Shown in pieces: positions 6,116 through 43,456 of a DNA stretch of 64,000 bases. Under the pieces are notes generated by a model that had not been told where the DNA came from, searched no databases, and saw nothing but the letters and a program-made list of their open reading frames with translations. The translations under genes were made by a program, and so were the position numbers. The stretch's first letter is position 1. Each line of letters begins with the position of its first letter. Source of the DNA: an uncultured Candidatus Saccharibacteria bacterium (lineage in GTDB: Bacteria > Patescibacteriota > Minisyncoccia > Phycocordibacterales > JAKFXT01); the NCBI GenBank assembly GCA_964385825.1, contig CAYLPX010000002.1, forward strand, positions 1,281 through 65,280, in the 5' to 3' direction.

Positions 6116-6294
6116 GATGATTTTTTAATTCCTGGAATATTTCCATCATTAGCTAACTCGCGGAAACAAATGCGGCAAAGGTCAAAGTCACGCATATATC
6201 CACGCTTTCTTCCGCAACGAAAGCAACGATGAGTAGCCCGAGAAGAGAACTTCGGGGTCCGAGTTGAACGTACTACTGTTGATGTTTTTGCCAT
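6109..6294 (-). CDS. rpsN: 30S ribosomal protein S14 type Z (zinc-binding)
   Basis: 61 aa with CxxC...CxxC ([20 protein letters not shown]). Confidence 0.9.
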
Positions 6295-6475
6295 TGTGTA
6301 ATGTAGCTAACTACCACCAAGGATTTCTTGATGATTTTACTTGTTTTTTGGTAACCCAGCCACTAAAGAAACGGTGGTTTCTCTCGCGCTCCAGCATTAC
6401 CTCCAACAAAAAAGGCACTAAGTGCTTAGAGAGGATATTAGCAAGGATTATAGGGGGTGTCAAACAGGAGAACTT

Positions 6476-6501
6476 GTAGGGACAAACCGTAGGGACAAAC
6501 C
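6476..6501 (+). repeat. perfect tandem direct repeat gtagggacaaacc x2
   Basis: Read directly from the sequence: gtagggacaaacc gtagggacaaacc. It lies about 80 bp upstream of the island ORF at 6579. Confidence 0.9.
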
Positions 6502-6578
6502 TAAGAAATCTAGCTATTTTACAAGTGGTTTGCTAGAGTGCAGCCAGCTGTAAACATCCACCAATCGAAGGAGGTCGC

Positions 6579-7004
6579 ATGATCTACCAAGTAGGCAGTC
6601 ACACCTTCACTCCCGGTCTCTACATGAAACTGAAGACGGGTGAGCTTTTTCTCTTCCACCACGCCGTCCAAAACAGCCGCAAGGGCACCGGGGAGCCAGG
6701 TTCGACCAAGATGGTATATGTCTACTCGAACATTGCCGACGGGGACTTCATCTACCGACATCTTCCCTACTCACAGCTTCTTGCACCCAGCATCGCATTG
6801 CAGCTCTGCGACATGTGCAACCCAATGGACAAAGCGCTTGTAAGGATAGTGTACGATGCCTTCATGCAAAATACTGTTTTCGCGCGAAATTTTGCAAAGC
6901 CATTCGCCGAGTGGGCGAGCATGCACCGTATCCCGCTTTCGGTAAGCACCTCGATTGCAGGGATTCTGCATTTCGACACCCACCCCATGTTTCATGGGGT
7001 CTGA
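6579..7004 (+). CDS. hypothetical protein on GC-rich island, antisense to the ribosomal operon
   Basis: 141 aa ORF preceded by AGGAGG (gaaggaggtcgcATG). It has high GC and high GC3, unlike its neighbours. A GC-rich terminator follows. Confidence 0.5.
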   Translation: MIYQVGSHTFTPGLYMKLKTGELFLFHHAVQNSRKGTGEPGSTKMVYVYSNIADGDFIYRHLPYSQLLAPSIALQLCDMCNPMDKALVRIVYDAFMQNTVFARNFAKPFAEWASMHRIPLSVSTSIAGILHFDTHPMFHGV

Positions 7005-7010
7005 CTCATC

Positions 7011-7051
7011 CCCCCCCCCGCCGCGGAGTACCGCGGCGGGGACTATTTTTT
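7011..7051 (+). terminator. GC-rich hairpin plus T-run after the island ORF
   Basis: cccccccccgccgcggagtaccgcggcggggac followed by tatttttta. Confidence 0.65.
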
Positions 7052-7060
7052 ATATTCCTA

Positions 7061-7103
7061 AAACAAAAACTCCTCCCTAGTTTAGGGAGGAGTTTTTGTT
7101 TTG
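7061..7103. terminator. bidirectional intrinsic terminator immediately downstream of rplE
   Basis: aaaacaaaaactcctccctagtttagggaggagtttttgtttt: a perfect 10 bp stem with A/T runs on both sides. It falls between rplE and rpsN, which are normally co-transcribed. Confidence 0.75.
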
Positions 7104-7104
7104 C

Positions 7105-8024: not shown

Positions 8025-8396
8025 TTACACTACTTCTGGAGCTAGAGAAATAATCTTTTGGAATCCCATTTCAGAAAGTTCACGAGGAATAGGACCGAAT
8101 ACACGTCCGCCACGTGGCTCCTTACGCTCCTTATCGAGTACCACAACTGCATTCTCATCAAAACGAATGTAAGAACCATCCTTGCGGCGAAAATCTTTCT
8201 TAGTGCGAACTACAATAGCAGGAAGAATTTCCTTTTTCTTTACGCCCTTACGAGGCTCGGCGATTTGCACTGAGAGAATAACGATATCCCCAATACGAGC
8301 ATAGCGCTTCTTAGAGCCACCAAGCACCTTAAACACACGTCCGATTTTAGCTCCGGTGTTATCTGCTATTTTGACGATTGATCGTGGTTGAATCAT
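8025..8396 (-). CDS. rplN: 50S ribosomal protein L14
   Basis: 123 aa; MIQPRSIVKIADNTGAK matches the L14 N-terminus (MIQ..T.L.VADNSGA). Confidence 0.9.
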   Translation of the reverse strand: MIQPRSIVKIADNTGAKIGRVFKVLGGSKKRYARIGDIVILSVQIAEPRKGVKKKEILPAIVVRTKKDFRRKDGSYIRFDENAVVVLDKERKEPRGGRVFGPIPRELSEMGFQKIISLAPEVV

Positions 8397-10860: not shown

Positions 10861-11027
10861 GAAAAATGTAAGTTTTTGGTTGGCTCAGCTTCTTTTTTGG
10901 CAATTAAAAAAACCTTATCGCTAAGGTCTCCAAGGCGCCAACCATGGAAGCTATAGGAGTAGACTATCAAACCCATACAAATTGTCAAACCCCCGCCATC
11001 CCCCCACCAAAAGTAGTAAATCATAAA

Positions 11028-11055
11028 TTGACAAAAACTATAAATGTGTTAGATT
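11028..11055 (+). promoter_or_regulatory. sigma70-like promoter candidate for the island ORF at 11126
   Basis: TTGACA (11028-11033), a 16 nt spacer, then TAGATT (11050-11055). A hairpin plus T-run follows at 11061-11087 (ccggttcacttaggtgaacgttttttg), and the SD and ATG follow that. Confidence 0.4.
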
Positions 11056-11125
11056 AAAAGCCGGTTCACTTAGGTGAACGTTTTTTGTTCCTCACAACGC
11101 CCCCCTAGGGGGAGAAAGGTAGCAC

Positions 11126-11695
11126 ATGCTTAGCAGGAAAAAATACCCCACCCTCGTGGGACTCATGGCCACCATTCCGGCTGTGAAAGTGGAAGTGGAG
11201 CAACTTCTCGCGGAGAAGTCCACTCCGAGCGGCGCCGCCGACAGGGCCGTGCACCAAATCGGTGCGGTGTTGGCCAAGCACGGCATGCTGAACGGCTTCG
11301 CGAAGTTGGCAGCAACCCCTCCGACCGCGCAAAGTACGGGTTCGGACGCTACCAGCTTCGGCTTCCCGATCGGCAACGATCGGCATGAACTCACCCGCCT
11401 GCGATTGCTTGCGGCCAAGGCTGAGGGCAACTACGATGAAGTGCGCGCCGAGGCCATGGCCACGCTTACGAACTGGGGAGGCAAGAGCCCCAGACGAGTC
11501 ACGGCCGGCCTCATCAGCCAAATCGTGGAAGGCACAGGGCGGCCCCGCTTCATTGCGGAACTGCTTGCCGCCAGCCCCACCGAACAGCATGGCGAGTTGC
11601 TGAAGCATGTCGCAGGCTACTACAGCAGAATCGGCCTGCGGGCTTCGCCCAAAAAGCTCCTCGCCGAGGCGCGGCAGGCAGGCTACCAGATCTAA
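11126..11695 (+). CDS. hypothetical protein on GC-rich island, antisense to the ribosomal operon
   Basis: 189 aa ORF with very high GC3 (gcc, ggc, ctg codons). SD ggggagaaaggtagcacATG. A strong terminator follows. The product is Ala/Leu-rich and helical. Confidence 0.5.
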   Translation: MLSRKKYPTLVGLMATIPAVKVEVEQLLAEKSTPSGAADRAVHQIGAVLAKHGMLNGFAKLAATPPTAQSTGSDATSFGFPIGNDRHELTRLRLLAAKAEGNYDEVRAEAMATLTNWGGKSPRRVTAGLISQIVEGTGRPRFIAELLAASPTEQHGELLKHVAGYYSRIGLRASPKKLLAEARQAGYQI

Positions 11696-11726
11696 GCTCT
11701 AGGCCGAGTAGGCCATGTTCTTCTCC

Positions 11727-11765
11727 GTCGGGAACCCTTCGTGGTTCCCGACTTTTTTATTTTTA
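11727..11765 (+). terminator. intrinsic terminator of the island ORF
   Basis: gtcgggaacccttcgtggttcccgac followed by ttttttattttt. Confidence 0.75.
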
Positions 11766-11897
11766 GAAAAATATTTGTAACCTTTTTTAAAATCTTCTAG
11801 TTTCATTAATACAAATTGATACTTGATGATTGCTAAGCCGAAAGTAGTTTAGCAGTCGCCAAGTGGAAATTTGGAAGTTTCCGTTTTGAATGCAAAT

Positions 11898-11925
11898 CCC
11901 CGCCGGCGCATGCGCGCCGGCGGGG
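11898..11925. repeat. perfect 28 bp GC palindrome
   Basis: ccccgccggcgcatgcgcgccggcgggg, sitting at the 3' end of the minus-strand island ORF. Confidence 0.85.
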
Positions 11926-11941
11926 TGTTCCGATGGCACCG

Positions 11942-12373
11942 CTACGAATGAGGTGCCGAACTGGTGTTGAAGAGTTCGGGGTCCGGCCAATCAAGCTTCG
12001 CCCCATCCAAAAGCGGCAAGGCCGCCTGGAAAAGATGGGCGATGTTGAAACACGCCGACTGGACGTCTTTTCCTGCCGTGTCGTCCTGCGCATCCTTCTG
12101 CAGAACGCGTATGAACATCTCCCCCACACGTATCCGACAGCGCCCCTCCTCACCTCGGCTCAAAACGCCTTGCCGAAAGGAAGCGGTGAGGATCTGGAGC
12201 AGTGTCTTGATTTCGTCACGATTCGGCCACGCTGAAGACTGAGCCCCAACCGATACCCTCTTCGTGAGTTGCTCAAGACGGTCCAGAATGAGCTCAACCA
12301 GAGTGTCCGCGACGCTCTTGATCGGCCGCTGCACGTACGCAACAGCCTCATTTATTTCAGGGTTTTCGTGCAC
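11942..12373 (-). CDS. hypothetical protein on GC-rich island
   Basis: 143 aa ORF with a GTG start preceded by GGAGGTG. High GC. The overlapping alternative ORFs on both strands make the coding call uncertain. Confidence 0.4.
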   Translation of the reverse strand: MHENPEINEAVAYVQRPIKSVADTLVELILDRLEQLTKRVSVGAQSSAWPNRDEIKTLLQILTASFRQGVLSRGEEGRCRIRVGEMFIRVLQKDAQDDTAGKDVQSACFNIAHLFQAALPLLDGAKLDWPDPELFNTSSAPHS

Positions 12374-12435
12374 GGGGCACCTCCAAGAAAAAAGGGTTAT
12401 ACAGCTCGCTTGAGCTTATACTCCACTAGTAAAAA

Positions 12436-12476
12436 GTCAAACGCCGCGGGCCTCCCGCGGCGTTTGACTTTTTGTT
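12436..12476. terminator. bidirectional intrinsic terminator immediately downstream of rplB
   Basis: gtcaaacgccgcgggcctcccgcggcgtttgac, flanked by aaaaa and tttttgttt. Confidence 0.75.
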
Positions 12477-12490
12477 TAATTTTTTCCGAA

Positions 12491-14359: not shown

Positions 14360-14968
14360 TTATTTTGCCTTGATCTCAAGTAAAGTACCGCGACGACCAG
14401 GAACAGCTCCTTTGATTATCATTTCATTCTTGTCAGTATCAATAGCAAGTACCTTAAGGTTACGCACCGTAATACGATCAGATCCCATGCGACCTCCCAT
14501 GCGCATACCCTTTGGTACGTGTGAGCGAAGTCCGCCTGAAATTGATCCTGGTTCACGCTCGGCGTGAGCATTACCGTGAGTGCGAGGACCTCCCGCGAAA
14601 CCATGGCGCTTAATAACACCCTGGAATCCCTTACCCTTAGAAATACCAGAAATCTCGAGTTTGTCCCCCACAGTAAAGTTAGCTAGCGTTACTTCATCTC
14701 CCACTTGCATAGTAGATTCTGCAGCAAGACGAACCTCAATAAGTTCTGAGAAGTTAGGAAGCTCCTTTAGGTGTCCTTTCATGGCCTTGTTTGCAGCTTT
14801 TTTACCGGGGAAACCACCGAGCTGAACAGCAAAATATCCGTCTGTCTTCTCGCCCTTCACTTGAGTAACAATAAGAGGGCTGATAGACACTACGGTACCA
14901 GCAGAAACACGCCCCTTCTCATCGAAGATCTGTGTCATCTCTTTCTTTTTACCAAGTAAGAATTTCAT
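14360..14968 (-). CDS. rplC: 50S ribosomal protein L3
   Basis: 202 aa; L3 family; follows the rpsJ region. Confidence 0.9.
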   Translation of the reverse strand: MKFLLGKKKEMTQIFDEKGRVSAGTVVSISPLIVTQVKGEKTDGYFAVQLGGFPGKKAANKAMKGHLKELPNFSELIEVRLAAESTMQVGDEVTLANFTVGDKLEISGISKGKGFQGVIKRHGFAGGPRTHGNAHAEREPGSISGGLRSHVPKGMRMGGRMGSDRITVRNLKVLAIDTDKNEMIIKGAVPGRRGTLLEIKAK

Positions 14969-15135
14969 TCTATAAAAAATGCGACCCCATAAAACTATAG
15001 TGTCGCCAGTAGAAAGGTCTCAAATACTAACCGAGGCCTTTTTGTCTGGCGGAACTTTCTCTCGGAATCCGAAAGTGTTCACAGAACGCAATAGAAGGCA
15101 TATTACACGACCCTAGAAAAAATGCAAATGTTAAA

Positions 15136-15158
15136 GCCGAGGCGCAGCGCGCCTCGGC
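15136..15158. repeat. GC-rich palindromic hairpin
   Basis: gccgaggcgcagcgcgcctcggc followed by cttttgggg. Confidence 0.7.
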
Positions 15159-15176
15159 CTTTTGGGGAACACCCCG

Positions 15177-15491
15177 CTACACACGAGGATTCTTGGGAAG
15201 CTGCGCGGAAAAGACGATAGGGGCTCCGCGTCCTCGACGAGGGGGCTTTTGGGAAACTCCAGCCCCCTCCTTTTTCGCAGCATTCTTCTGTGCCCGGGCC
15301 GCCCTTTCCGCCAACACCTTTGTCACATGTTGGGGTGCCAACACTTGCCCGGTTGCACTTTTCCATTTCTGATCTATCGGACTTAACCGATAGACCGTTC
15401 CATAATGCACGAGTTCATCTTTACGCATAAAAGCCCTCTCTAAACAATTCTTAAGAAACCTTATCACAACTATCTTTTTCACAAAAATCAA
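15177..15491 (-). CDS. possible small basic protein on GC-rich island (uncertain)
   Basis: 104 aa ORF. Its C-terminal half is GC-rich and basic (RAQKNAAKKEGAGVSQKPPRRGRG). The overlapping alternative frame means it could be noncoding. Confidence 0.25.
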   Translation of the reverse strand: MIFVKKIVVIRFLKNCLERAFMRKDELVHYGTVYRLSPIDQKWKSATGQVLAPQHVTKVLAERAARAQKNAAKKEGAGVSQKPPRRGRGAPIVFSAQLPKNPRV

Positions 15492-15570
15492 TTGACGTAT
15501 ATGAAGGATGAGGAGTACGCTTATTATTGGGTTAGTTCACCACACTGAAGTACCAACCAGGAGAAGAGCC

Positions 15571-15927
15571 ATGCCAGGAAGAGTGGTTGATACCTATAGT
15601 TCCCGCAGCATAGATGAGCTGCTTGCCATGATGACAGCAGACGTGGTCAATCGACCAAGGCCTACTGCTTCCCCCCTTTTTCAAGCTATTGAACACCGCG
15701 GACTACATCGCGGTGAAAAAGGAAAACCCGACAAGGTAACCCTGGCAGGGATCCTGAAGTACGCCAGGGCCCAACTGGAACAGGAAACTGAGACCAAGAT
15801 ACTTCTCGCCTTCGCCAAGCTCATCAATTCAATCCTAGACGACGTTGCCGATTTCGATGATGGGCTGCCGCGGCAATCCTTCGAGAAGGCTGTTGCGAAA
15901 ATTCCGCCACACTTGGCACAGAACTGA
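15571..15927 (+). CDS. hypothetical protein on GC-rich island, antisense to the ribosomal operon
   Basis: ATG at 15571 preceded by AGGAGA (ccaggagaagagccATG). It is the internal start of the tracked ORF 15508..15927. High GC; terminators follow. Confidence 0.45.
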   Translation: MPGRVVDTYSSRSIDELLAMMTADVVNRPRPTASPLFQAIEHRGLHRGEKGKPDKVTLAGILKYARAQLEQETETKILLAFAKLINSILDDVADFDDGLPRQSFEKAVAKIPPHLAQN

Positions 15928-15939
15928 TCTGTGCCAGCC

Positions 15940-15970
15940 CCCCCGCCCTAAGGCGGGGGTCGTTTTGTGC
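15940..15970 (+). terminator. GC hairpin plus T-run after the island ORF
   Basis: cccccgccctaaggcggggg followed by tcgttttgtg. Confidence 0.6.
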
Positions 15971-15986
15971 CACGAACTTCAAAAAA

Positions 15987-16029
15987 CAAAACCCCTCCCT
16001 CGCGTCGCGAGGGAGGGGTTTTGTTTTTT
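15987..16029. terminator. bidirectional intrinsic terminator immediately downstream of rpsJ
   Basis: aaaacccctccctcgcgtcgcgagggaggggttttgtttttt. Confidence 0.75.
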
Positions 16030-16042
16030 GATAATGCTTTAT

Positions 16043-16414
16043 TTACATCATCTTCACATCAATTGAAACACCGGAGGGAAGTGAGAGGTTGGTGAGCGCC
16101 TCTACAATCTTCGCTGTTGGGTTCACAATATCAATCAAACGCTTGTGCACTCTCATTTCAAACTGCTCACGAGCATTTTTGAAAATAAATGACGAACGAT
16201 TAACTGTATATTTCTTGATGGTCGTTGGGAGAGGAACTGGTCCTTCAATCTTGGCATCAAAACGCATTGCAGTGTCCATAATTTGCTTGACTGATGCGTC
16301 AAGAATCTTATGCTCATACGCCTGTACACGGAGACGAAGTTTACCCATATCCCCTCCTTCAGTAGCCTTAGCTTTTTTAGGAGCGGCTTTCTTTTTAGTG
16401 GTTACTTCGGCCAT
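16043..16414 (-). CDS. rpsJ: 30S ribosomal protein S10 with Lys-rich N-terminal extension
   Basis: S10 core (LRLRVQAYEHKILD ... FEMRVHKRLIDI) with an MAEVTTKKKAAPKKAKATEG leader. Confidence 0.9.
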   Translation of the reverse strand: MAEVTTKKKAAPKKAKATEGGDMGKLRLRVQAYEHKILDASVKQIMDTAMRFDAKIEGPVPLPTTIKKYTVNRSSFIFKNAREQFEMRVHKRLIDIVNPTAKIVEALTNLSLPSGVSIDVKMM

Positions 16415-16451: not shown

Positions 16452-17651
16452 TTAGGCAACGATCTTAGTAACAACTCCAGCACCAACTGTCTTACCTCCT
16501 TCACGGATAGCGAGACGCTGCTTTTCTTCAAGAGCAATAGGAGCTACAAGCTTTACCTTAAAGGTAACGGTGTCTCCCGGCATAACCATTTCAACACCTT
16601 CCTTAAGGGTTACTTCACCAGTTACGTCAGTAGTACGTACGTAGAACTGAGGCTTGTATCCAGAGAAGAATGGAGTGTGACGTCCTCCTTCCTCCTTACT
16701 TAGAATGTACACCTCAGCCTCAAACTCGGTGTGTGGATTAACAGATCCTGGCTTTGCAAGCACCTGTCCACGATGGATATCATCTTTCTTAAGACCGCGA
16801 ACAAGGAGTCCAGCATTATCTCCCGCCTGACCTTGCTGAAGACTCTTGTTGAACATTTCAACACCTGTAACGGTTGTCTTTACCGTGTCCTTAAGACCGA
16901 TAATTTCCACTTCTTCACCTACCTTGATAGTACCGCGTTCGATACGACCGGTTACTACCGTTCCTCTTCCTTCAATAGAGAAGATGTCTTCAACTGGCAT
17001 AAGGAATGGCTTATCAAGTTCACGTTCTGGAACTGGAATGTAGGTATCAAGCGCGTTAACGAGCTCAAGTACCTTCTTTGCCCACTCATCATCAGCAGAG
17101 GTTGCTTCAAGAGCCTTAAGACCTGATCCACGGATAACTGGGGCGTTAGCTCCATCAAATCCCTGTTTGGTCAAAAGCTCACGAACCTCTTCTTCCACAA
17201 GATCAAGCATATCCTTGTCATCCACCATGTCACACTTGTTGAGGAACACGATAATGCGAGGTACACCCACCTGCTTTGCAAGGAGCACGTGCTCACGAGT
17301 CTGAGGCATCACACCATCAGTTGCAGCTACCACAAGAACAGCACCGTCCATCTGAGCGGCACCAGTAATCATGTTCTTAATGTAGTCCGCGTGTCCTGGG
17401 GCATCAATGTGCGCATAGTGACGGGTGTCGCTAGCGTACTCGTTGTGCGAGATATTAATTGTAATACCGCGAGCCTTTTCTTCCGGTGCTGAGTCAATGT
17501 CATCAACTCCCTTCATTTTAACTTCTTTACCTGCAAGGTGAAGAACGTTAAGAATAGCCGCAGTAAGAGTGGTCTTACCGTGGTCTACGTGACCGATAGT
17601 ACCTACGTTTACGTGAGGCTTACTACGATCAAAAACTGCTGCTTCTGCCAT
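16452..17651 (-). CDS. tuf: elongation factor Tu
   Basis: 399 aa; [18 protein letters not shown] and NKCD GTPase motifs. Confidence 0.95.
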
Positions 17652-35774: not shown

Positions 35775-36017
35775 ATGGCAAAATCTTGCGCAATCACCAA
35801 TAAGACTTCAATCGTAGGCGGGGGCTACTCGAACGAGACTCGTGCTACCCAGTTCAACCCTACTGGCAAGCGTCGCCGCCATGTGAACCTCCAAAAGAAG
35901 CGTATTTTCATACCTGAACTCAACAAGAGTATGACCCTTACCCTCTCAACAGCTGCTATCCGTACTATCAACAAGAATGGGGCTTACGCCACACTCAAGA
36001 AGGCAGGACTCATCTAA
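35775..36017 (+). CDS. rpmB: 50S ribosomal protein L28
   Basis: 80 aa; MAKSCAITNKTSIVGGGYSNETRATQ...; L28 family. Confidence 0.8.
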   Translation: MAKSCAITNKTSIVGGGYSNETRATQFNPTGKRRRHVNLQKKRIFIPELNKSMTLTLSTAAIRTINKNGAYATLKKAGLI

Positions 36018-36060
36018 AACAGTTTATAGTTTTTAGTGGATAGTCTTATAGAAAACAAAA

Positions 36061-36097
36061 GCAAACTGCCGGCACGCGAAGCGTGCCGGCAGTTTGC
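36061..36097. terminator. bidirectional terminator after rpmB
   Basis: gcaaactgccggcacgcgaagcgtgccggcagtttgc followed by ttttcccc. Confidence 0.7.
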
Positions 36098-36173
36098 TTT
36101 TCCCCTTGACTCATTTTAAAACCGGCGTAAAGTTAATAGTGTCCCATTTCGGACTACACTCAAGGAGAGCATC

Positions 36174-36593
36174 ATGCAAAAGCATCGCCCGTCCCTGTGG
36201 AAATCGTTCTTCGCCAACCCCGCCAATGCGTTCGTCGGTATCGTGTCCCTGTTCGTCGGCATCCTCGCCTGGCTCGCCGAGCCCGATGCGCTGGCCGCGG
36301 CCTACACGACGTTCGACTTGCGTCCCTGGCTCGATCCGGTCCACGTCTTCGGCATGCTGTCGGCGTTTGGCCTCTTCCTGGTCGGCCTCGGTATTGCGTT
36401 CATCGTTGCGAAAACCGTCGCCCGGCACTACTTCAGCCACCGCCGGCCCGCGCTTCGCCAACTGTTGACCTTCGCCGTCGCCCAGACCAAAACTGCCTGG
36501 AAAAACCTGATCGCCATCGGCCACGCTACGGCCGCCATGATCGGCGCCGCGCTGCCGGCCTTCCGCCACCGCTCGGCTCCCCTGCTGAGCTGA
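36174..36593 (+). CDS. hypothetical small membrane protein on GC-rich island
   Basis: 139 aa. SD caaggagagcatcATG. GC3 is above 80%. Two or three predicted TM helices (FVGIVSLFVGILAWL; VFGMLSAFGLFLVGLGIAFIVA). Terminators follow. Confidence 0.55.
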   Translation: MQKHRPSLWKSFFANPANAFVGIVSLFVGILAWLAEPDALAAAYTTFDLRPWLDPVHVFGMLSAFGLFLVGLGIAFIVAKTVARHYFSHRRPALRQLLTFAVAQTKTAWKNLIAIGHATAAMIGAALPAFRHRSAPLLS

Positions 36594-36615
36594 CCGGTCG
36601 GCGTACTACAGTCCC

Positions 36616-36673
36616 GGCGCAACTGCGAGAGCTAGTTGCGCCAAAACCCCGCTTCGGCGGGGTTTTTTATTTT
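36616..36673 (+). terminator. tandem hairpins ending in a canonical intrinsic terminator
   Basis: ggcgcaactgcgagagctagttgcgcc, then aaaaccccgcttcggcggggttttttatttt. The T-run overlaps the stop codon of the convergent comEC-MBL gene. Confidence 0.8.
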
Positions 36674-37548
36674 ACCGAAACCTTACTACCATCAGAATCT
36701 ATTTCTATTCTCCCCAAGTTATCAGTGCGGAGAGTTTCAATATGAAGTGCATTAAACGTAGCAAGTGTTTCTTTATGTGGATGCCCATACCTATTATCCT
36801 TCCCCACCGATATCACCGCTATACTGGGGTGCACCGTTTGTACATACGTAGGATCACTCGAGGTGTGAGACCCATGATGCCCAGCTTTGAGCACGTCACT
36901 TTCTAAACCGGTTCCATCTAGCTGTGTTAGATGTTGCTCAATGTCTCTCGGTGCATCACCGCTAAATATAAAGTGGGTAGAGCCATACGTGAGACGCGCG
37001 ACAATTGAAGCTTCATTACTTTCTACATATGTCACATCTTTATCCGGATAGAGAATGTCTAGTGCTACTCCATCTTCCTCATCAAGTACCAGTCTCATCC
37101 CGCGTTTTGCAATAACTCTTTGATTCCCCAACTTTACTGCTTCAGTATCTAACCTCTTAAATGCCTGCGTATCTTTAGTTCTATTCCCCGACTCAAGAAA
37201 CATGCCTACTTTATAGCGTGACAATACTTCAGGTAACCCTCCCACATGATCTGCATCAGGGTGAGTTGCTATAACCACATCAATATCATGATCAAGTGGC
37301 GAAAGTACTGCTCCGAGTTCCGTGAGCACTTTATTATCTGTAGGACCTCCATCAATCAATACTTGATTTCCATTCGGTGCTTCAATAAGTGTGGCGTCTC
37401 CCTGTCCAATATTAAGATAAAAAACTTTCAAAGTAGTTTTTCTTGTTTGAGGGGAAAAAGCCTCTCGCCAAACAAAAACATTGCTGAACAATAAGATAAA
37501 TACTACCCCTGGCAATATATAATTTCGCACACTTCGCAGTTTATCCAT
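36667..37548 (-). CDS. ComEC-like MBL-fold metallo-hydrolase domain protein (stand-alone ComEC C-terminal domain)
   Basis: 293 aa. An N-terminal TM is followed by a metallo-beta-lactamase fold (HPDADHVGG; GHHGSHTSS). Confidence 0.7.
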   Translation of the reverse strand: MDKLRSVRNYILPGVVFILLFSNVFVWREAFSPQTRKTTLKVFYLNIGQGDATLIEAPNGNQVLIDGGPTDNKVLTELGAVLSPLDHDIDVVIATHPDADHVGGLPEVLSRYKVGMFLESGNRTKDTQAFKRLDTEAVKLGNQRVIAKRGMRLVLDEEDGVALDILYPDKDVTYVESNEASIVARLTYGSTHFIFSGDAPRDIEQHLTQLDGTGLESDVLKAGHHGSHTSSDPTYVQTVHPSIAVISVGKDNRYGHPHKETLATFNALHIETLRTDNLGRIEIDSDGSKVSVK

Positions 37549-43198: not shown

Positions 43199-43456
43199 AA
43201 CAAAAACAGCCTGCACTACCCCGTGAGGTTAAGTGCAGGCCGGGCTCCAATCGCAGATTCCTACTAAAAGCGTGTGGTATTTCAACGTCGGCTCCACCCA
43301 TCCCGGAAGCAGGGTTTCAAAGCCTCCCACATATCCTACACCCTCTTTTTTCACAATCTTTGACCACTGCAAGGAGTCGAACCTTGCACCATGTGCGGTA
43401 CCGTAGTGTTGTTACGAGCCAGAAGGAGTATACCCCCTCAACTTTAAAAAGTAAAA

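Follow-up and report, generated by a model that had tools for sequence, protein, structure and literature searches.

The gene order of the S10-spc ribosomal gene cluster is among the most conserved in bacteria. In the DNA analyzed here, a 64,000-nucleotide (nt) stretch of contig CAYLPX010000002.1 (assembly GCA_964385825.1; hereafter the window) from the genome of an uncultured, Paceibacterota- or Nomurabacteria-like member of the Patescibacteria (Candidate Phyla Radiation, CPR), a 1,074-bp island at positions 14969–16042 separates rpsJ from rplC. The island contains an open reading frame (ORF) of 118 residues on the plus strand, a divergent ORF on the minus strand and three strong hairpins. 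Several described systems resemble it in part. Type II toxin–antitoxin modules (MazEF, RelBE, Phd-Doc) are likewise compact units of two small genes, with a protein that has a folded N-terminus and a disordered tail, and with a palindrome in the control region. However, the island genes are divergent and not bicistronic, they are inherited vertically at a single locus, and in a sister species the plus-strand gene is hypervariable and the minus-strand gene is frameshifted. Divergent regulator–target pairs, such as the phage CI/Cro switches, the controller proteins of restriction-modification systems and the LysR-type regulators, share with the island back-to-back promoters within ∼140 bp, a conserved palindromic block and small genes. 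They differ from it in that neither island protein has a detectable DNA-binding domain (helix-turn-helix, ribbon-helix-helix or other), and the operator of the island is putative. The leaders of ribosomal-protein operons, exemplified by the L4-controlled S10 leader of Escherichia coli, resemble a third part of the island, in which a promoter and a structured leader of ∼125 nt with compensatory changes precede a block that includes rplD (the L4 gene). The island leader, however, lies before rplC and not before rpsJ, has no Rfam match, is likened to the E. coli leader by predicted structure, and adjoins the ORF pair without being part of it. Finally, bidirectional intrinsic terminators between convergent genes have a counterpart at the rpsJ end of the island, with a long GC stem, an A-run and a T-run, and the only unusual point about it is its location inside a normally continuous ribosomal operon.

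The explanation that we favor, with moderate confidence for the whole, is that the island is a self-contained, lineage-specific two-gene cassette that splits the ribosomal operon. For its anatomy, genes and signals our confidence is high, and a role of the minus-strand protein as a regulator, predicted from its sequence features, is more doubtful than probable. The gene order on the minus strand is tuf (16452–17651), rpsJ (16043–16414), the gap (14969–16042), rplC (14360–14968), rplD, rplW and rplB. Along the direction of the ribosomal operon, the rpsJ stop codon is followed by a bidirectional terminator, a second hairpin and the 118-residue gene (P118; antisense, directed towards rpsJ), then by a 142-bp control region, the 83-residue gene (M83; sense), a weaker terminator and a promoter with a two-hairpin leader, after which rplC begins. 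An earlier note on this DNA had described a divergent gene pair embedded antisense in the operon. The genes are indeed divergent and bounded at both edges by hairpin terminators, but only P118 is antisense, as M83 is co-directional with tuf, rpsJ and rplC. The GC content of the island (0.55–0.575) is higher than that of its flanks (0.42–0.47). The island sequence is the same in 13 independently assembled contigs (ENA, JGI and Logan), and it is therefore not a chimera or an assembly artefact. The sole variant found in the island within the species concerns the bidirectional terminator, whose tail has a T-run of either 6 or 7 (position ∼1150 of locus L009, window 15981–15986); as all 13 contigs are otherwise identical in the island, polymorphism among them was uninformative.

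Protein homologues were sought in a word-indexed set of 5.8 billion proteins and in a full HMMER search over 1.84 billion cluster representatives, with both proteins concatenated as the query. The word-indexed search returned only self matches for both ORF products. HMMER identified a single homologue of the minus-strand product, a protein of 82 residues with 61% identity over the whole length (E = 7e-20), and no match for the 118-residue protein in the same pass. A profile of the minus-strand product and this homologue added only a variant of 107 residues, which is a frameshifted allele and leads to a 53-kb contig of the sister species (GCA_964541455.1, locus L096). The gene order in this contig is tuf, rpsJ, a 116-residue ORF on the opposite strand, the M83 homologue and rplC, that is, the same junction. 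Scans of metagenomic and viral contigs revealed no new lineage and no relatives in viral contigs, and the cassette is thus far found as a single copy in the window and at one junction of one sister species. Searches against Pfam, PHROGs, NCBIfam and PADLOC gave nothing significant for both ORFs, their longer versions and the sister-species orthologues, and sequence-profile searches of the PDB gave E-values of 0.35 or worse. Fold comparisons likewise yielded no match. The divergence between the two species is considerable. Their tuf products are 99% identical (synonymous divergence, dS, 0.61), and the identities for rplC and rplD are 92% (dS 1.4) and 89% (dS 1.5). With dS of 0.6–1.5 in neighboring genes, unconstrained DNA is expected to be close to saturation.

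Against this divergence, both island ORFs show frame-specific conservation in the sister species and have conserved Shine–Dalgarno (SD) sequences and ATG codons, and for this reason both are most likely real genes, as judged from sequence comparison. The earlier note had named as adverse the outcome that only one ORF, or neither, would show coding signal or homologues; each of them has an orthologue in the sister species, as this frame-specific conservation indicates. The lengths of the ORFs are only weak evidence by themselves: when the dinucleotides of the island are shuffled, a longest ORF of 139 or more codons arises with P = 0.078, and a second ORF of 104 or more with P = 0.066. Codon usage was scored with a log-likelihood model built from 41 long ORFs in the window. 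P118 scored 0.133 (P = 0.002) and M83 0.100 (P = 0.007) relative to ORFs from island shuffles, which score −0.18 ± 0.11. In both ORFs, GC1 exceeds GC2 (0.63 versus 0.40), as in coding sequence.

M83 occupies positions 15177–15428 of the minus strand and encodes 83 residues with an isoelectric point (pI) of 11.1. The earlier note had placed a minus-strand ORF at 15177–15491. Such an ORF exists (104 residues from a TTG codon), but its start was moved to the ATG at 15428. This ATG and its SD sequence (AGAGAGGG, 15441..15434) are retained in the sister species and the TTG lies upstream of a conserved −10 element, so the gene most likely starts at 15428. Substitutions between the two species are codon-periodic, with 27, 27 and 47 differences at positions 1, 2 and 3 (p = 0.0009) in a nucleotide alignment that was made without reference to the frame. 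The invariant C-terminal IVFSAQLPKNPRV is encoded by the last 14 codons, where the differences number 1, 1 and 6. The N-terminal 50 residues are predicted to form three strands and a helix; the AlphaFold model is in agreement with this, with a β-β-β-helix arrangement followed by disorder and a predicted local distance difference test score (pLDDT) of 76–86 for residues 1–40. The tail, rich in Lys, Arg and Pro and ending in IVFSAQLPKNPRV, is predicted to be disordered. A hairpin inside the minus-strand ORF (15238–15270) is not conserved between the two species; it is probably incidental and was dropped.

P118 (15571–15927, plus strand; 118 residues, pI 6.8, predicted to be helical) is preceded by the SD sequence AGGAGA at 15559–15564, and the sister species has GGGAGA at the equivalent place. 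There, at the same place and on the same strand, a 116-codon ORF starts from the homologous SD sequence and ATG. The two products are 24% identical over 80 residues (BLASTP E = 8e-6), with the DNA being 39% identical. This frame pair alone is conserved, with a score of 66 versus at most 33 in the 35 other frame pairs (z = 9.5 relative to shuffles). The similarity required gapped alignment, as the two P118 regions gave no match to each other in ungapped tblastx. The nonsynonymous divergence (dN) of 0.93 is near saturation and indicates very fast evolution. A longer version of 139 residues from the ATG at 15508 was rejected, since this ATG lies within the predicted promoter, which argues against it, and has no counterpart in the sister species. 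A 138-residue antisense shadow ORF, which some gene callers report in the sister species, was also set aside, as it is closed in the window.

The start codons of the two genes (15428 and 15571) are 142 bp apart, and the interval between them contains the most conserved signals of the pair. The putative P118 promoter (15492–15521, plus strand) consists of TTGACG (15492–15497), an 18-nt spacer and TACGCT (15516–15521). Both hexamers and their spacing are identical in the sister species, whereas the spacer sequence differs, which is the signature of a promoter for P118. On the minus strand, a putative extended −10 element of M83 (TGATAAGGT, 15458–15466) is located inside a conserved block, AGTTGTGATAAGGT, that is identical in the sister species. 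Between the two predicted promoters lies a block of 23 nt (TTTTTCACAAAAATCAATTGACG, 15475–15497), which is 100% conserved and contains the palindrome TCAATTGA (15488–15495). It occurs once in the window and otherwise only in the loci of the two species, and it is a candidate shared operator of the divergent promoters. Conservation is much higher in the non-coding control blocks than in either gene, and the control motifs are confined to the loci of the two species.

At the rpsJ end of the island, a bidirectional intrinsic terminator at 15979–16031 has perfect arms of 26 nt, a GC core (15990–20) and a flanking A-run and T-run. The folding energy of a 115-nt region around it is −66 kcal/mol on one strand (z = −9.3) and −70 kcal/mol on the other (z = −10.2), with a 25-bp stem on both. 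It is 82% identical to its sister-species counterpart, with 2 compensatory pair changes, and lies 12 nt from the rpsJ stop codon. Because it has an A-run or a T-run on either side and is located between the convergent genes rpsJ and P118, its sequence identifies it as the predicted terminator of both the tuf-rpsJ transcript (minus strand) and the P118 transcript (plus strand). Another terminator-like hairpin comes first after P118 (15940–15959, plus strand). It is formed by CCCCCGCC-CTAA-GGCGGGGG with an 8-bp all-GC stem, is followed by TCGTTTTGTG and is partly retained in the sister species (CCCGCC/GGCGGG). The plus-strand ORF was thus found as the earlier note had drawn it, with its SD sequence and two downstream hairpins. 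So was the GC hairpin at the far edge (noted at 15136–15158), which is the terminator hairpin of M83 (15133–15161, minus strand; arms 15133–15145 and 15149–15161, z = −3.5), located 15 nt past the M83 stop codon. Its stem is retained in the sister species with base changes, but its U-tract is interrupted (TTTAACATTT), so this terminator may be leaky.

Beyond the M83 terminator, a putative promoter of rplC-rplD-rplW-rplB (15100–15127, minus strand) is formed by TTGCAT (15127..15122), a 16-nt spacer and TAATAT (15105..15100), and the block 15085–15132 is 94% identical (45/48) to the sister species. It was preferred over a promoter-like TTGAGA-18-TATAGT (15023..14994), which is not conserved there. 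The two-hairpin 5′ leader of rplC (15004–15080, minus strand) comprises H1 (15052–15080) and H2 (15004–15051). The leader of ∼125 nt has 28 predicted pairs, 2 of them with compensatory double changes, and its z-scores for the two species are −3.1 and −4.5. In Rfam, 14969–15132 had only chance-level matches at E-values up to 10, and the leader may be an unrecognized ribosomal-protein operon leader. At a permissive E-value, Rfam searches of the island gave only terminator-like sub-threshold matches (ohsC, rnk leader and RsaJ 3′ end) and none at the gathering score; the ohsC_RNA match (29.7 bits versus a gathering score of 50) covers only the terminator hairpin. No tRNA or transfer-messenger RNA was found.

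The position of the cassette is most readily understood as derived. Among 23 other Patescibacteria loci with both genes, the gap between rpsJ and rplC is just 8–186 bp in 19, which argues that the insertion is the derived state. The cassette would have been fixed at this junction in an ancestor shared by the two Paceibacterota-like sister species. The ancestral S10-type operon would thereby have been divided into tuf-rpsJ and an rplC operon with a promoter of its own, and the cassette has three promoters and three terminators in total. Since an antisense gene and a strong terminator interrupt the S10-spc cluster here, the ribosomal genes beyond them must restart from a new promoter and leader. 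Transcription of tuf-rpsJ would stop at the bidirectional terminator, and that of the rplC block would be restarted from the conserved promoter and leader, with read-through of the weaker M83 terminator possibly adding to its expression. M83, with its folded β/α N-terminus, basic disordered tail and invariant C-terminal motif, could be a small nucleic-acid-binding protein that acts at the shared control block and regulates both itself and P118. The latter would be a fast-evolving and dispensable helical accessory protein.

Several observations weigh against this explanation. All comparative statistics come from one pairwise comparison, because only two species carry the cassette. The codon scores of both genes (0.10–0.13) are below the minimum of the host genes in the window (0.17; mean 0.37). 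P118 lacks significant codon-position periodicity (0.58/0.53/0.65, p = 0.21), and its structure model is poor (pLDDT 51). No DNA-binding domain was found in M83 by sequence or fold searches. The promoters are predictions from consensus and conservation, and the promoter rules of Patescibacteria are poorly known. Finally, the M83 orthologue is frameshifted before its conserved C-terminus in 10 of 11 sister-species contigs. The difference is a run of GGG versus GGGG (L096 ∼8196–8199 versus L094 ∼378–382), and the frame is intact in the remaining contig, which has a coverage of 1.19× and one further mismatch nearby. The intact frame may reflect a true minor allele, an error in the reads or a site of slippage, and the frameshift means either that the M83 tail is dispensable in the sister species or that the gene is decaying there.

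The frameshift also counts in favor of the strongest competing explanation, in which the two genes are neutral foreign leftovers of an old insertion and selection acts mainly on the terminator, promoter and leader. We regard such decaying cargo as rather unlikely, although it is the most probable of the alternatives. It would explain why the non-coding blocks are so much better conserved than the genes, why GC content and codon usage are atypical, why P118 is near saturation and M83 frameshifted, and why 4 of 23 relatives have unrelated inserts at this junction, a sign of turnover. However, both frames have stayed open with their SD sequences and ATG codons across a dS of ∼1, and chance would not keep a frame of 116–118 codons open. 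In addition, M83 is under purifying selection, and the conserved hexamers of the P118 promoter are of no use to ribosomal genes. The search for hallmarks of mobile elements also gave no support to an insertion of this type. The island contains no terminal inverted or direct repeats and no transposase, integrase or recombinase domain, and there is no other copy within the window. The only flanking-type repeat, a 13-mer direct repeat at 14970 and 15113, is lacking in the sister species and was discarded.

Other alternatives concern the ribosomal genes. M83 might be a lineage-specific ribosome-associated protein or regulator of the ribosomal operon that is co-expressed with rplC through a leaky terminator and acts on the ribosome or on the leader RNA. 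This is improbable in our assessment. The gene lies directly upstream of rplC in the same direction, its terminator has the interrupted U-tract, and the conserved structured leader comes immediately after it; the protein also resembles many ribosomal proteins in its strongly basic character and disordered tail. On the other hand, it is confined to two species, has no similarity to any ribosomal protein family, is frameshifted in one of the species and has a codon score of 0.10 versus 0.41–0.59 in the highly expressed neighboring genes. A comparably low probability is assigned to an extension of the cassette explanation, in which the cassette would form a new type of small control unit within ribosome synthesis, with M83, produced from its own promoter just ahead of rplC, acting on the palindromic block and/or the rplC leader and thereby coupling rplC-rplB to the state of P118. 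In a variant of this, the pair may persist because the ribosomal operon has come to depend on the promoter and terminators that were brought in, which would amount to ‘addiction by operon capture’ without a toxin.

It is very unlikely that one or both ORFs are not genes, and that the island is a non-coding spacer or encodes an RNA, with frames open by chance. Such an explanation would be in line with the marginally unusual ORF lengths (P = 0.07–0.08), the lack of homologues beyond the sister species, the missing codon-position periodicity of P118 and the disagreement between gene callers in the sister species, where the 138-residue shadow ORF is called. However, that shadow ORF is not open in the window, the frame-specific similarity of P118 (z = 9.5) has no rival above a score of 33 in any other frame pair, the periodicity of M83 is clear (p = 0.0009), SD sequences and start codons are conserved, the codon scores of both ORFs stand out from island shuffles (P = 0.002 and 0.007), and no Rfam family at threshold and no tRNA were found.

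The least probable alternative, and one for which we see hardly any room, is the toxin–antitoxin (addiction) module suggested in the earlier note, in which one gene would encode a growth-inhibiting toxin and the other a labile antitoxin that represses the shared promoter region: the two small adjacent genes with signals of their own, the antitoxin-like layout of M83 (folded N-terminus, disordered tail and invariant C-terminal motif) and the conserved palindromic block between the genes are outweighed by the arrangement of the genes, which are divergent, 142 bp apart, equipped with a separate predicted promoter and terminator each and not co-transcribed, by the absence of any match to a known toxin, antitoxin or defence family or fold (Pfam, NCBIfam, PADLOC and PHROGs; fold searches), and by a single-copy distribution at one locus in two species, with no relatives in viral contigs, that is neither patchy nor multi-copy. 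The evolution of the two genes points the same way, as P118 drifted to 24% identity while the M83 tail stayed invariant, and the dominant sister-species allele lost this tail by frameshift with no sign of loss in the other gene. In type II modules, the two genes normally run in one direction on a shared transcript and overlap or lie a few bases apart, which is not the arrangement here, and no similarity was found to the toxin superfamilies typical of them (RelE/ParE, MazF/CcdB, PIN, HicA, Doc/Fic, HipA, GNAT, zeta and others). Their antitoxins combine a DNA-binding fold (RHH, HTH, AbrB/SpoVT or Phd/YefM) with a toxin-binding tail; M83 has a predicted disordered tail, and sequence and fold searches detected no DNA-binding domain in it. 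Type I modules consist of a short hydrophobic toxin ORF and an antisense small RNA, whereas both island proteins are hydrophilic (grand average of hydropathy −0.31 and −0.71). The small regulatory module that was offered as the other option is consistent with the strong conservation of the control region between the two genes. The island is best described as a lineage-specific orphan two-gene islet and, on present evidence, is no new class of system.

The rpsJ–rplC junction is also occupied in other members of the group. Unrelated inserts of 654–1,409 bp are present in the remaining 4 of the 23 Patescibacteria loci (L018 170–1577, L028 4790–6000, L029 5348–6000 and L033 5070–6000). They contain ORFans, a DUF4395 membrane protein and a 204-residue protein with a sub-threshold match to sigma-70 region 4. 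The close relatives L029 and L033 carry different inserts, so the junction looks like an insertion hot-spot with turnover. Among species-representative genomes, the closest relatives of the rplC product are in metagenome-assembled genomes labelled Paceibacterota or Nomurabacteria (50–62% identity). No description of such inserts in the ribosomal cluster was found in the literature searched.

At least two further GC-rich orphan islands are located in the same cluster of the window at 10861–12490 (between rplB and rpsS) and 6116–7104 (between rplE and rpsH), with ORFs of 141–189 residues and no Pfam match. The GC-rich islands of the window have no sequence in common and are therefore not a repeat family. 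Taken together with the junction inserts, they suggest a hot-spot at which the reduced genomes of the group tolerate insertions. The cassette between rpsJ and rplC clearly exemplifies orphan genes that have been maintained together with well-conserved control signals; its relevance is to CPR genome evolution, and by itself it opens no major question. Part of the island at 10861–12490 is conserved in the sister species. The frames with the highest conservation in this island run antisense to the operon, so the real gene there may be the plus-strand ORF 11126–11695 and not the minus-strand ORFs that were called.

Outside the ribosomal cluster, a GC-rich patch is present at 36000–37000 (0.53–0.57 versus a background of 0.44). 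In addition, an isolated 82-nt segment on the minus strand (43266–43347) matches positions 2130–2211 of bacterial 23S ribosomal RNA (rRNA), i.e. the L1 stalk, with 53.8 bits, which is above the gathering score. This segment is plausibly an L1-binding rRNA mimic in an rplK/rplA leader and not a true rRNA gene.

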